Below are positions 48,912 through 51,511 of a stretch of DNA of 64,000 nt, piece after piece; within the stretch, counting starts at the first letter, position 1; each line of letters opens with the position of its first letter. The stretch comes from an uncultured Actinomycetes bacterium (GTDB taxonomy: Bacteria > Actinomycetota > Thermoleophilia > Solirubrobacterales > Solirubrobacteraceae), in assembly GCA_963812435.1 (NCBI GenBank), contig CAWEUZ010000005.1, positions 67,385 to 131,384 of the forward strand, given 5' to 3'. The position numbers and the translations under genes are program-made. The notes beneath the pieces were generated by a model. That model saw nothing but the letters and a program-made list of their open reading frames with translations, was not told where the DNA came from and did not search any database.

Positions 48912-51350
48912 TCACGCTGCGCTCCAGGCTTCCCAGTCGTCCAACGTCTCGATGAGAGCTTCGTCGGTGAGTACCGAGGCGAGGCGCGGGAGCCACTCGG
49001 CCTCGGGGTGGTGATGCTCTTCTGCCCGGGCGACGTTGCCTGCGAGATCCCAGCCCGGAGATCGCGTGCCGGCCGAGAGGAGCCGCTTCTCCTCGGCGAG
49101 CGCCTGCTGACGTCGCTCTTGCGGCCCGTTGGCGTACAGGTAGAACCACAGCTCGAGCAGGAGTTGGCTTGTGTCGCCTGCCAGGTCCAGAGCACGCTCT
49201 GCGTTCGCGATGCCTTCGGTGATGCGATCGTCGTGGATCTGGTGGCGCGCGTAGTTGCCGAGGTTGTTGGCGTTGGTGGGGTCCGCGTCGATCGCGCGCT
49301 TGTAGAGCGCCTCCGCAGCCGTGTCGTCCCCACGAATGAGGTTCAGGAAGAGCGCGTAGCCGCCGAGGGCGTTGGCGTTGGTGGGGTCCGCGTCGATCGC
49401 GCGCTTGTAGAAGTCCTCCGCAGCCGTGTCGTCCCCACGAATGACGTTCAGGAAGACCGCATAGTTGCTGAGGTTGGTGGCGTTGGTGGGGTCCGCGTCG
49501 ATCGCGCGCTTGTAGAAGTCCTCCGCAGCGTCGTCATCCCTGCGAACGTTCTTGAGGAAGAGCGCGTAGCCGCCGAGGGCGTTGGCGTTGGTGGGGTCCG
49601 CGTCGATCGCGCGCTTGTAGAAGTCCTCCGCAGCCGTGTCGTCCCCACGAATGACGTTCAGGAAGACCGCGTAGCCGCCGAGGGCGCTGGCGTTGGTGGG
49701 GTCCGCGTCGATCGCGCGCTTGTAGAAGTCCTCCGCAGCGTCGCCATCCCTGCGAACGTTCTTGAGGAAGAGCGCGTAGTTGCTGAGGTTGTTGGGGTTG
49801 GTGGGGTCCGCGTCGATCGCGCGCTTGTAGAAGTCCTCCGCAGCGTCGCTATCCCTGCGAACGTTGTCGAGAAAGATCGCGTAGCCGCCGAGGACATTGG
49901 CGTTGGTGGGGTCCGCGTCGATCGCGCGCTTGTAGAGCGCCTCCGCAGCGTCGTAGTCCTTGCGGATCTCCTTCAGGAAGATCGCGTAGTTGCCGAGGTT
50001 GGTGGCGTGCGTGGCGTTCCTGTCGAGCGCGCGCTTGTAGAAGTCCTCCGCTGCGTCGTCCTGCTTGCGGACGTTCTTGAGGAAGATCGCGTAGTTGCCG
50101 AGGTTGTTGGGGTTGGTGGGGTCCGCGTCGATCGCGCGCTTGTAGAGAGCCTCCGCAGCGTCGGCATCTCTGCGAACCTCGCTCAGGAAGACCGCATAGT
50201 TGCCAAGCAGCTCCGGCGAGTGCGGGATGCCCTCGAGTCCGGCGCGGTAGATGGCGTCGGCGGCATTTGGGTCGGAGTCCTTGAACGGCCGTGCGCGCAG
50301 CTCGACCTGCCACCAGTCGGGGATGCGTTCGACGGCTTGTGCCGAGGCCTCCTTGAGTGCCGGTGCCGACGGCTCCGACGCCGGGAGCTTCTCGACGGCT
50401 GTGCGCAGCGTGCTGAGGGCTTCGAAGTAGTTTGTCTGGAGCGTCTGCCAGCGAGCGATCTCTGGATGAGGGAGCTTGAAGCGCTGCTGGACCAGCAGCA
50501 TGAGCTGGTCGAAGTCCGCGCTTTCGACCCAATAGCCCTTCCGTGCGCTGAGCCACTCGAGCACGCGATCGTTCGGAGTGGACCGCGCGACCCACCAGAC
50601 GCCCGGCCCCAGCGTGTCGCCGGGCAGCCGCTCCAGGGCGTCCATGACGCTGTCGTCGTTCCCGGCGTAGCCCATGACGACCAGACCTCGTTGCTGCAGA
50701 AGGCTCTGAAGCCGCTCGCGGACCGCTGCGTTGAGCGCCGCGAGCTCCTCCTTCGTGTTGAGCGGCTCGAGCTGGTGGTCACCGTGCAGCTTGACGACCA
50801 GCGGCCTCCCGAAGTCAGCTCGCATGAAGCCGGCCAGCGCCGCGTGCGGGATGACCAAGGGGCGAGACTCCGTAAACAGGTAGAGGGCGTCGGCGATCAG
50901 GTCGTCGAAGTTGGTCGTAAGGACGACGTTGAAGTCCGGACTCGCGCGTTCGATCAGCTTCGCGAGGACACAGCACCCGAAGCCCGGGTCGTGGTTGCGG
51001 CAGATCCGCTCTACCTCTTTCTGCTTGTCGTGCTTGAGCGGGAACAGAGCCTCCATCACCGGCCCATAGGACAACGCGGGGGAGTTGGGGTCGTAGCCGG
51101 GGAATGCACGCGCCGCCCAGTCCTCCAAGCTCTCGCCGTCCCCGCCTCGGTATCTGTGAAGGCGCGGGAGCCAGGTGTCCTCGACCAGCGCCCCGGCGGC
51201 GGGGATCCCGGATGTCACCGAGCAGCCGGCGCCCAGGAGCACGGCGTGCTGCGTGTGCTGCGGCCGCTCAGCGAGGCGCCCGACGAACTCCTCCGCGCTG
51301 ATCTTCATCAGGTCCACGACAGTCCACTCCGATGGGCGTGCCGGCGGCAC
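48912..51350 (-). CDS. SIR2_2-type (DHS-like NAD-binding) domain fused to about 10 TPR-like repeats; candidate NADase sensor/effector
   Basis: The N-terminal ~300 aa carry LLGAGCSVTSGIP, VLTTNFDDLIADAL, VVKLHGDH and VVMGYAGNDDSV (SIR2_2 pattern). The C-terminal part has tandem 35-aa units of consensus AAEDFYKRAIDADPTNxxxLGxYAxFLxxxRxDxD. The start could be GTG 51350 or ATG 51308. Confidence 0.8.
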   Translation of the reverse strand: MPPARPSEWTVVDLMKISAEEFVGRLAERPQHTQHAVLLGAGCSVTSGIPAAGALVEDTWLPRLHRYRGGDGESLEDWAARAFPGYDPNSPALSYGPVMEALFPLKHDKQKEVERICRNHDPGFGCCVLAKLIERASPDFNVVLTTNFDDLIADALYLFTESRPLVIPHAALAGFMRADFGRPLVVKLHGDHQLEPLNTKEELAALNAAVRERLQSLLQQRGLVVMGYAGNDDSVMDALERLPGDTLGPGVWWVARSTPNDRVLEWLSARKGYWVESADFDQLMLLVQQRFKLPHPEIARWQTLQTNYFEALSTLRTAVEKLPASEPSAPALKEASAQAVERIPDWWQVELRARPFKDSDPNAADAIYRAGLEGIPHSPELLGNYAVFLSEVRRDADAAEALYKRAIDADPTNPNNLGNYAIFLKNVRKQDDAAEDFYKRALDRNATHATNLGNYAIFLKEIRKDYDAAEALYKRAIDADPTNANVLGGYAIFLDNVRRDSDAAEDFYKRAIDADPTNPNNLSNYALFLKNVRRDGDAAEDFYKRAIDADPTNASALGGYAVFLNVIRGDDTAAEDFYKRAIDADPTNANALGGYALFLKNVRRDDDAAEDFYKRAIDADPTNATNLSNYAVFLNVIRGDDTAAEDFYKRAIDADPTNANALGGYALFLNLIRGDDTAAEALYKRAIDADPTNANNLGNYARHQIHDDRITEGIANAERALDLAGDTSQLLLELWFYLYANGPQERRQQALAEEKRLLSAGTRSPGWDLAGNVARAEEHHHPEAEWLPRLASVLTDEALIETLDDWEAWSAA
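49230..50270 (-). repeat. 10 tandem 105-bp coding repeats (TPR-like units of the SIR2 fusion gene)
   Basis: The core GTCCGCGTCGATCGCGCGCTTGTAG recurs on the plus strand at 49281, 49386, 49491, 49596, 49701, 49806, 49911 and 50121. Degenerate copies sit at 50016 and ~50226. The period is exactly 105 bp. Confidence 0.9.
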
Positions 51351-51438
51351 GATAGTCCGCTCGGATCGCGCAATGCGCCGCTTTCGACGCGATCGAGCGA
51401 GGGCTCGGCTGTCGAGAGCAGAAGACGACCTGGCGAAG

Positions 51439-51511
51439 CTCCCCGGGTTGGACTCGAACCAACAACCCTTCGGTTAACAGCCGAATGCTCTGCCAATTGA
51501 GCTACCGGGGA
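51439..51511 (-). tRNA. tRNA-Asn (anticodon GTT)
   Basis: The minus strand reads TCCCCGGTAGCTCAATTGGCAGAGCATTCGGCTGTTAACCGAAGGGTTGTTGGTTCGAGTCCAACCCGGGGAG. It has a 7-bp acceptor stem, a CT-GTT-AA anticodon loop and a GGTTCGAGTCC T-arm. CCA is not encoded. Confidence 0.9.

Follow-up and report, generated by a model that had tools for sequence, protein, structure and literature searches.

A stretch of 64,000 nucleotides of Solirubrobacteraceae DNA (NCBI GenBank assembly GCA_963812435.1, contig CAWEUZ010000005.1, positions 67,385 to 131,384 of the forward strand; hereafter the window, whose own numbering is used below) contains an interval between the primase gene dnaG and the gene for tRNA-Asn that is filled by a single gene, encoding an 812-residue protein with an N-terminal SIR2 domain, an array of tetratricopeptide repeats (TPR) and a conserved C-terminal domain. 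This SIR2-TPR protein is probably a self-contained abortive-infection protein, in which the module formed by the TPR array and the terminal domain would bind an invader ligand and the SIR2 domains would then come together and destroy NAD+. Behind this reading stand the architecture itself, a conserved catalytic site, a variable locus, a C-terminal half that recurs on other enzymes, and relatives carried by mobile elements. An earlier note, made from the letters of this DNA, had singled out the gene as a candidate NAD-depleting defense protein, lying alone and convergent with dnaG; the open reading frame (ORF) and its arrangement are as described there, with 15 bp between the dnaG and SIR2-TPR stops and a spacer to tRNA-Asn that computes to 87 bp.

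Sequence and predicted structure both place the SIR2 domain in the immune ("sirim") type. The motifs named in the earlier note are all present in the translation, including the NAD loop G40-A-G-C-S44...S47 (within LLGAGCSVTSGIP at residues 38-50), TTNFDDL (residues 145-151), KLHGD (187-191) and GYAGNDDS (227-234, with the GYxGxD motif at 227-232), and Pfam SIR2_2 (PF13289), for which the cut-off is 24.5 bits, matches the domain at 43.6 bits. Among PADLOC profiles, that of the SPARSA-type Argonaute-associated SIR2 (Aga_SIR2, E = 3.8e-39) matches best. The match to the SPARSA SIR2-APAZ profile is confined to the SIR2 part (positions 5-298 of 558), as is that to the PADLOC candidate PDC-S65 (E = 4.3e-21, profile positions 32-289 of 592 only), while ThsA profiles are marginal (E = 0.0035 over 43 residues) and no DSR profile occurs among the PADLOC matches at E <= 0.1. 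Sequence matches in the PDB are to SPARSA Sir2 chains only (8in8, 8jkz, 8jl0; E = 1.3e-10), and in these alignments GAGxS...SGxP, TTNFDD, KxHGD and GYxGxD coincide column by column with SPARSA Sir2.

The fold gives the same picture. A model of residues 1-345 (predicted local distance difference test, pLDDT, 90.3; predicted template modeling score, pTM, 0.87) finds SPARSA Sir2 as its best match (template modeling score, TM, 0.64-0.66), followed by ThsA (0.55-0.59) and then by KomC, DSR2 (0.54-0.55) and Avs5 (AVAST5). All of the best 50 PDB fold matches are anti-phage SIR2 proteins, and no canonical sirtuin is among them. The only cysteines of the protein are residues 43, 117, 126 and 127, which form no CxxC pairs, and the sirtuin zinc module is therefore lacking; the SIR2_2/sirim clade has been reported to be 12-fold enriched near defense systems and to be without the sirtuin zinc site (preprint 10.1101/2024.09.18.613514). 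In a set of 121 homologs with 35-93% identity, the invariant residues are G40, G42, S44, F148, D149, D150, K187, H189, G190, D191, G227, Y228 and D232, and 120 of the homologs have N147. The assignment of the predicted catalytic residues, Asn147 (codon 50910-50912) and His189 (codon 50784-50786), thus holds both across the family and in the alignment with SPARSA Sir2. The domain looks catalytically competent, and the product is a probable NAD-destroying enzyme.

The SIR2 domain is followed by a helical linker that is kept throughout the family, including in SIR2-only homologs, the members of about 350 residues stopping there. The Pfam search of the protein matched no P-loop or NTPase family, and residues 293-359 form three helices, in agreement with the earlier claim that no STAND or AAA NTPase lies between the SIR2 domain and the repeats. 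Next come ten tandem 35-residue units in perfect register, matching Pfam TPR_17 (E = 3.6e-43) and nine more TPR families over their cut-offs. At the DNA level, Tandem Repeats Finder detects a 105-bp unit in 9.1 copies with 83% identity, together with a three-unit super-period of 315 bp in 3 copies with 88% identity (49247-50204). The units carry the TPR pattern W4-G8-Y11 / A20-F24-A27-P32 with paired helices in each: unit residues L23, A27 and L30 correspond to W4, G8 and Y11, and A5, Y9, A12 and P17 to A20, F24, A27 and P32, a register with which the predicted helix boundaries agree; the unit length of 35 instead of 34 reflects one extra residue in the A-B loop. In the full-length AlphaFold2 (AF2) model, built with the 121 homologs (mean pLDDT 86.9, pTM 0.70), the Rossmann domain covers residues 15-292 and the three linker helices lie within 298-359; some 20 paired helices make up the repeats, and the terminal helical domain spans 729-811. 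In a fold search with the whole model, the array matches the TPR superhelices of OGT and SPINDLY (OGT TPR E = 8e-13), and the N-terminus again matches SPARSA Sir2.

The earlier count of about ten TPR repeats was right, but what had been taken for a mere helical cap is, as judged from its homologs, a conserved domain in its own right that is common to other effector classes. It comprises 103 residues, with pLDDT above 90 in the AF2 model, and has no Pfam model; a PDB profile search with it found designed TPRs only, over the first ~30 residues. Its signature is ExxFY...GxRSxxW...HP...W, and E733, F736, Y737, R763, S764, W767, H781, P782, L803 and W809 are conserved at 83-99% across 127 proteins. 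Searching 1.84 billion representative proteins with residues 700-812 gave 584 clusters at E <= 1e-3 (183 at E <= 1e-10), and among the matches listed the domain lies at the C-terminus in every case. SIR2 is present in only 47 of the best 149 matches (P0121-P0269); N-termini of other kinds found on the same TPR and terminal-domain module are given in Table 1. Because a constant C-terminal module combined with swappable enzymatic or switch domains is a known immune-sensor design, this modularity is the strongest contextual argument for a sensing role.

The repeat array of the window protein is recently expanded: it has 10 units, whereas an ortholog with 92% N-terminal identity has 4 and another, with 87%, has 3. 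Among 125 proteins with both SIR2 and terminal domain, 3 is the commonest number of detectable units and 0 and 12 are the extremes; the window protein has the second-highest number. Near-identical adjacent units in P0002, P0024 and P0100 indicate independent recent duplications elsewhere in the family. DNA identity among units 2-10 is 68-93% (most pairs 72-93%), and the ratio of nonsynonymous to synonymous differences (pN/pS) between the window units is 1.1, a figure that is only descriptive for paralogous units and from which positive selection on the repeats is not claimed. Residues differ between units at positions 2, 3, 7, 8, 21, 22, 25, 28, 31, 32, 33 and 35, of which positions 21, 22, 25, 28, 31 and 32 equal the canonical helix-A positions 2, 3, 6, 9, 12 and 13. 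These helix-A positions face the concave ligand side in TPR-peptide complexes, position 6 being that of the Asn ladder of OGT. The pattern is suggestive of a concentration of the variation on the concave face, as far as textbook TPR geometry applies and for positions that were picked for their variability.

The architecture is not a one-off; it belongs to a multi-phylum family hidden under generic annotations. A search with residues 1-360 yielded 291 proteins among the candidates scored, nearly all with SIR2_2 followed by TPR families and typically 560-630 residues long, from Actinomycetota, Acidobacteriota, Chloroflexota, Myxococcota, Cyanobacteria, Verrucomicrobiota and Desulfobacterota. They are annotated as 'SIR2 family protein', as 'tetratricopeptide repeat protein' or, wrongly, as PilF/TadD, and about one fifth of them consist of ~350 residues of SIR2 and linker with no repeats. 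Relatives are carried by mobile elements. A 32-kb plasmid of Photobacterium toruni encodes a 716-residue SIR2 protein with like repeats (WP_080176582.1; 31% identity over 667 residues, E = 7e-84), full-length homologs occur on Methylobacterium and Rhizobium plasmids, and in the Haloferax virus Halfgib1 a protein with SIR2_2 and TPR lies between integrase/winged helix-turn-helix genes and a Dcm methylase. The same SIR2 subtype is fused to other C-termini in 42 IMG/VR viral contigs (L095-L136), none of which has the TPR array or terminal domain of the window type, and also in phrog_14359, phrog_23427 and a Vibrio 186-like prophage, where it lies between int and cI.

Some of these prophage and viral proteins merit description for themselves. 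The prophage-borne SPARSA-type SIR2 proteins fall at about 864 residues (phrog_14359; e.g. L096 7902-10493) and at 640-680 residues, the 864-residue group ending in a conserved motif, YYRF/Y..WPA.P. As PADLOC recognizes nothing beyond the SIR2 part of the prophage proteins, they look like further unvalidated single-gene SIR2 systems. One viral contig, L133, encodes a complete SIR2-APAZ-pAgo (prokaryotic Argonaute) fusion.

The locus itself was surveyed by scanning one genome per GTDB species with the window DnaG, which gave 80 Conexibacter/Solirubrobacterales loci. A SIR2-domain homolog within 8 kb of dnaG was found in 0 of the 80, so that the slot is variable and the gene absent from it in these species representatives, as the earlier note had anticipated. 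The next tRNA after dnaG is tRNA-Asn in 68 loci, where the gap between the two measures less than 250 bp in 28 (counted as empty, the shortest being 38 bp), 250-999 bp in 20 and 1-7.8 kb in 20. That the gene may be present or absent at one conserved site is plain from L004 (DnaG 86% identical), where the site is empty and 40 bp separate the dnaG stop from the tRNA. In the locus with the closest DnaG (L003, 87%), the tyrosine integrase and prohead protease genes directly after dnaG indicate that a prophage occupies the slot, and there is no tRNA within 8 kb of dnaG. In a sister Conexibacter metagenome-assembled genome (L006, DnaG 84%), the slot holds a pair of EAD1 genes that on their domain composition are an NLR-like conflict system, one that PADLOC does not recognize. 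With such mixed occupants (Table 1), the slot is best described as a general cargo hotspot, sometimes holding immune-type or viral genes, and not as a dedicated defense island.

An ortholog of the SIR2-TPR gene does occur with the same synteny in two metagenomic relatives, L001 (a JGI sample) and L002 (Conexibacter metagenome-assembled genome GCA_036269515.1), the gene order being GGDEF-HD, glycosyltransferase, acetyltransferase, GST_N-like gene, tRNA-Asn, SIR2-TPR and dnaG. The two orthologs are 87% and 85% identical to the window protein over the N-terminal 350 residues, and the DnaG of L001 is 84% identical to that of the window, compared with 87% for its SIR2-TPR protein. From the synteny and the DnaG-like divergence it follows that the gene was inherited vertically within a small clade; it is missing from sister species at equal distance. 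The earlier notion of a classic tRNA-targeted island insertion is not established, and a tRNA-directed integrative island is not called, there being no integrase and no att-like repeat, two syntenic orthologs and only a mild shift in GC content at third codon positions (GC3).

Compositional evidence is of limited help. The window, from a Conexibacter-like member of the Solirubrobacterales, has a GC content of 72.6%, and the nearest relatives of both its DnaG and its SIR2-TPR protein come from Conexibacter metagenome-assembled genomes. Over the SIR2-TPR gene the GC content is 0.64-0.67, against 0.72-0.77 in the flanks, so that the atypical GC content noted by eye is real. The deviation in codon usage is modest: dgt and dnaG have a GC3 of 0.96-0.97 and the remaining long ORFs of the window one of 0.93 +/- 0.035; the GC3 of the SIR2-TPR gene, 0.87, lies at a z of about -1.7 relative to the latter. 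The GC drop sits mostly in codon positions 1 and 2, i.e. in amino-acid composition, and the orthologs in the two relatives have an equally mild GC3 offset. As the GC drop comes largely from amino-acid composition and the GC3 shift is mild, composition is a weak argument for foreign origin, and a strongly foreign composition was rejected with GC3 only about 1.7 standard deviations under the other ORFs.

The SIR2-TPR protein resembles several validated defense systems and belongs to none of them. Membership in SPARSA, DSR, Thoeris, Avs5 and SIR2-HerA was considered and rejected, a defining feature of each having been looked for and not found. SPARSA (e.g. PDB 8jl0, 8y80, 8in8) provides the closest SIR2 relative, and the switching on of NAD+ hydrolysis by oligomerization is presumably common to both; the window protein differs in being without APAZ, its C-terminus consisting of the TPR array and the new terminal domain. 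A tblastn search of the 64-kb window with the APAZ-pAgo query of L133 gave nothing below E = 0.98, and with no Argonaute partner in the window, nucleic-acid-guided sensing of the pAgo kind is impossible. DSR2 and DSR1 likewise combine an N-terminal SIR2 NADase and a C-terminal alpha-solenoid in one chain, which in DSR2 binds a phage structural protein (tail tube). This is a resemblance of design, not sensor homology: SIR2 identity with DSR2 is about 14% with no DSR profile match, and the solenoid of DSR2 is a HEAT-like MID/CTD, whereas that of the window protein is a regular 35-residue TPR array with variable copy number and a distinct terminal domain. The description of the protein as DSR-like therefore stands for its design (SIR2 then solenoid, in one chain) and falls for family membership, SPARSA Sir2 being closest.

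Avs5/SIR2-STAND and the NACHT/NLR-like proteins with TPR sensors also pair an effector such as SIR2 with a repeat sensor, and the NACHT- and STAND-like fusions P0239 and P0136 carry the very same TPR and terminal-domain module; the window protein differs in having no NTPase switch, residues 293-359 being only a helical linker. Thoeris ThsA shares the immune SIR2 NADase fold (TM 0.55-0.59), but neither a SLOG nor a Macro domain was found in the window protein by Pfam and PADLOC, and no TIR (ThsB) gene is adjacent. SIR2-HerA (Nezha) differs through its HerA gene, none of which is adjacent here, the neighbors being dnaG and tRNA-Asn. PDC-S65, phrog_14359 and phrog_23427 are alike in being single-gene families with a SPARSA-type SIR2 at the N-terminus, often in prophages; their C-terminal halves are unrelated to the TPR array and terminal domain, and they are unvalidated candidates themselves. 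The earlier impression of an architecture unlike those of validated systems is confirmed, since PADLOC matches only the SIR2 domain and the literature searched holds no description of it. No paper found in the literature searches describes or tests a bacterial SIR2-TPR architecture, and the wordings 'SIR2-TPR' and 'TPR-SIR2' occur in no paper of the literature searched. The FAM118 paper (PMC12700824) labels some leaves of its SIR2_2 tree 'TPR', with nothing more on the subject, TPR-like fusions are reported among eukaryotic sirims (10.1101/2024.09.18.613514), and the conflict-systems paper of Kaur et al. 2020 (PMC7159879) never mentions SIR2.

As an abortive-infection protein, the SIR2-TPR protein would work as follows. 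In the uninfected cell, the N-terminal SIR2 NADase would be kept inactive. Binding of a protein of a phage or other mobile element by the TPR superhelix and terminal domain would lead to oligomerization of the SIR2 domains, as in SPARSA, DSR2, ThsA, KomBC and Avs5, and the assembled enzyme would hydrolyze NAD+, aborting the infection. Gain and loss of units, together with helix-A substitutions, may alter recognition. We infer the NADase activity, the trigger, the oligomerization and the phage-defense phenotype from these parallels; activation by oligomerization would follow the analogy with the systems just named, while the nature of the ligand, the part that binds it and the resulting phenotype are conjecture.

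Several observations weigh against a defense role. Chief among them are the solitary and unrelated neighborhoods of the family: five distant and two SIR2-only homologs stand alone among housekeeping genes, and in these seven contexts no recognizable defense neighbor, conserved partner gene or adjacent tRNA was found; such isolation is also what a system complete in one gene would be expected to show in phyla whose annotation is poor. PADLOC, run on eight proteins neighboring distant homologs, found only DrmC, at an unconvincing E = 3e-4 and 19 bits. For a toxic NADase, homologs that consist of SIR2 alone and have no sensor are odd, and the signal-peptide-like N-termini of a few terminal-domain proteins (P0223, P0250, P0259) fit a purely cytosolic sensor poorly. 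At the locus, the slot elsewhere holds plainly non-defense cargo (VIT1, an esterase, a Vgb-lyase-like protein, secreted proteins), and synteny in three genomes with DnaG-like divergence means that the gene is not a recent arrival in the window. The GC3 shift is mild, the ORF list has no integrase between dnaG and tRNA-Asn of the window, and no copies of the tRNA-Asn 3' end (14-20-mers, <=2 mismatches) were found in 48881-51437. Finally, the pN/pS split of 1.8 versus 0.49 is circular, the positions having been selected for variability. The isolated homologs, the synteny in three relatives, the nearly native codon usage and the sensor-less SIR2-only forms, along with an array whose fold is closest to the OGT and SPINDLY superhelices, binders of cellular substrates, would suit a non-immune housekeeping or regulatory SIR2 enzyme, either an NAD-dependent protein modifier (ADP-ribosyltransferase or deacylase) or a regulator of NAD levels, with TPRs that recruit clients like those of OGT. 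We consider such an enzyme improbable, given the absence of the gene from the locus in 80 of 80 species representatives with varying cargo, a SIR2 domain that groups in sequence and fold only with anti-phage NADases (no sirtuin in the best 50, no CxxC), a C-terminal module common to NACHT, Mrr nuclease and other conflict-type domains, and relatives on plasmids and viruses.

Alternatively, the protein might act in conflict or cell death through a trigger other than a phage protein bound to the TPRs: the terminal domain could sense a small molecule or stress, or the protein could mediate anti-plasmid or kin-directed death, with the TPRs as an oligomerization scaffold or spacer. Within the C-terminal half, conservation is strongest in the terminal domain, which contains conserved polar and aromatic residues typical of a pocket (E733, Y737, R763, S764, W767, H781) and is retained across at least five effector classes; a repeat number of 0-12 is hard to square with one fixed protein-binding surface, and small molecules activate known SIR2 effectors such as ThsA (PDB 8bto). 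Such a trigger is nonetheless unlikely, with no signal-producing partner conserved beside any homolog examined, with variable positions between units that equal the canonical ligand-facing helix-A positions, and with DSR2 and Avs-type sensors as precedent for direct protein sensing by solenoids. It is highly improbable that the gene is a remnant in decay or without function, or that its array is an assembly artefact. The unusual length of the array (10 units against a family mode of 3) and the inter-unit pN/pS of about 1 might hint at it, but the frame is intact over 812 codons with the GC3 of 0.87 expected of coding sequence, and the protein has intact catalytic motifs, a conserved terminal domain and an AF2 model that is confident throughout; moreover, the units differ by 7-32% in DNA (most pairs 7-28%) and are thus not collapsed identical copies. 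Taken as an abortive-infection protein, the SIR2-TPR protein is a credible SIR2 system of a single gene, widespread and unvalidated, whose sensor module is new, and is no surprise in principle.

Table 1. Features of the SIR2-TPR gene and its surroundings in the window, occupants of the dnaG/tRNA-Asn slot in related loci, and other N-termini found on the TPR and terminal-domain module
Feature	Position or source	Strand	Basis or content
SIR2-TPR gene, including the C-terminal domain	48912..51350	minus	812 residues; GTG start at 51350; ORF list, Pfam, AF2
SIR2 (sirim-type) Rossmann domain, residues about 15-292	50475..51308	minus	PADLOC, PDB match, conservation, model
Helical linker from SIR2 to repeats, residues about 293-359	50274..50474	minus	Predicted DSSP helices 298-320, 329-341, 345-359
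Ten tandem 35-residue TPR-like units, residues 360-709	49224..50273	minus	Tandem Repeats Finder, register, helices
Conserved C-terminal domain, residues 710-812	48915..49223	minus	One degenerate TPR, then helical bundle
dnaG (primase), convergent with the SIR2-TPR gene, one slot boundary	47055..48896	plus	Pfam domains; 80 orthologous loci
Spacer between tRNA-Asn 3' end and SIR2-TPR start	51351..51437	minus	87 bp; coordinates
tRNA-Asn (GTT), other slot boundary	51438..51511	minus, same strand as the SIR2-TPR gene	ARAGORN
Slot cargo	L003 (closest DnaG, 87%), 5784-12053		Tyrosine integrase and Caudovirus prohead protease directly after dnaG
Slot cargo	L006 (Conexibacter, DnaG 84%), 10196-15144		EAD1-trypsin, then EAD1-STAND NTPase ORFs (NPHP3_N/AAA_16/NB-ARC)
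Slot cargo	L036		NIDO/CarboxypepD_reg secreted protein
Slot cargo	L010		VIT1
Slot cargo	L035		Esterase
Slot cargo	L013		Vgb-lyase/GDSL protein
Slot cargo	Several other loci		Proteins without family
Other N-terminus	P0239		NACHT
Other N-terminus	P0136		STAND-like P-loop, Pfam 'TPR-S, sensor' match
Other N-terminus	P0197, P0208, P0256 and others		ParA/CbiA-type ATPases, KGGVGR Walker A
Other N-terminus	P0200		Mrr_cat nuclease and MraZ-like domain
Other N-terminus	P0128		Calcineurin-like (metallo)phosphoesterase

With regard to the gene and its immediate surroundings, an alternative in-frame ATG start lies at residue 15 (MKISAEEF), and the homolog P0001 has its first residue just upstream of this residue. 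The neighboring DnaG is complete (Zn-ribbon, DNAG_N, Toprim and DnaB_bind in Pfam), and a dgt-like HD phosphohydrolase gene (HD and HD_assoc) lies upstream of dnaG. A consensus scan of 48700-51800 found no sigma-70-like promoter and no terminator, such a scan being uninformative for a high-GC actinobacterium; the 87-bp spacer presumably holds a promoter and 5' untranslated region, or else the SIR2-TPR gene is read through from tRNA-Asn. Antisense to the gene runs an open frame of 830 codons (49008-51500, plus strand). Many such shadow ORFs exist in the window, as expected at 73% GC, so that ORF length alone is no evidence of a gene.

Other genes near dnaG and tRNA-Asn also vary. Between tRNA-Asn and the GST_N-like gene, the window has a gene for a collagen-triple-helix protein with an N-terminal membrane anchor (51613-52488, minus strand; Pfam Collagen E = 2.7e-15). 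L001 and L002 lack this gene there, the gap being ~96 bp, and both sides of tRNA-Asn are thus variable. Another ORF of the window (43581-44225, minus strand) has a similar N-terminus (ITGADIxxGxI..DLS) and GPxG runs, with no Pfam match. Downstream of dnaG, L081 has a tandem run of five paralogs (11439-17835) that encode secreted proteins of about 470-506 residues; in each, the signal peptide is followed by a 'T/QRYA(S/V)P' motif, and none has a Pfam family. An ORF of about 250-320 residues with a helix-turn-helix-like start (LKLLLxxGxSxExIAxRFG...STVxYW) adjoins tRNA-Asn in several Solirubrobacterales (L023, L037, L041, L049, L021, L035), on the plus strand and just upstream. In two species, the sole slot cargo is a 97-residue ORF (MMRAEYDSQADALSIDL...; L008 7013-7306, L011 9837-10130), for which Pfam gave no match at E <= 1e-3.

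In the Solirubrobacterales, a soil lineage that has been little studied, these results single out the dnaG-tRNA-Asn interval as a slot with variable cargo. Were the SIR2-TPR protein the abortive-infection protein proposed here, a widespread single-gene NAD-depleting immune protein would join the SIR2 defense repertoire, one that would allow a direct test of immune SIR2 activation without an NTPase, Argonaute or second-messenger partner. A further-reaching idea, which we offer tentatively and hold to be possible though doubtful, is that the TPR array and terminal domain form an undescribed NTPase-free pattern-recognition module that in bacteria and archaea has been joined to five or more classes of effector or switch, namely SIR2, NACHT/STAND, ParA-like ATPase, Mrr nuclease and metallophosphoesterase. 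In the SIR2 fusion, binding of an invader protein would then lead directly to NADase assembly, and specificity would evolve quickly through unit gain and loss and concave-face substitutions, as a prokaryotic counterpart of repeat turnover in eukaryotic NLRs. If this is true, a new sensor module is reused with NACHT, nuclease, ParA-like and phosphoesterase domains, and one trigger, once identified, would inform several systems. Repeat numbers of 2-12 occur naturally in the family and, together with the helix-A variation, would offer a tractable model for how specificity changes in repeat receptors.

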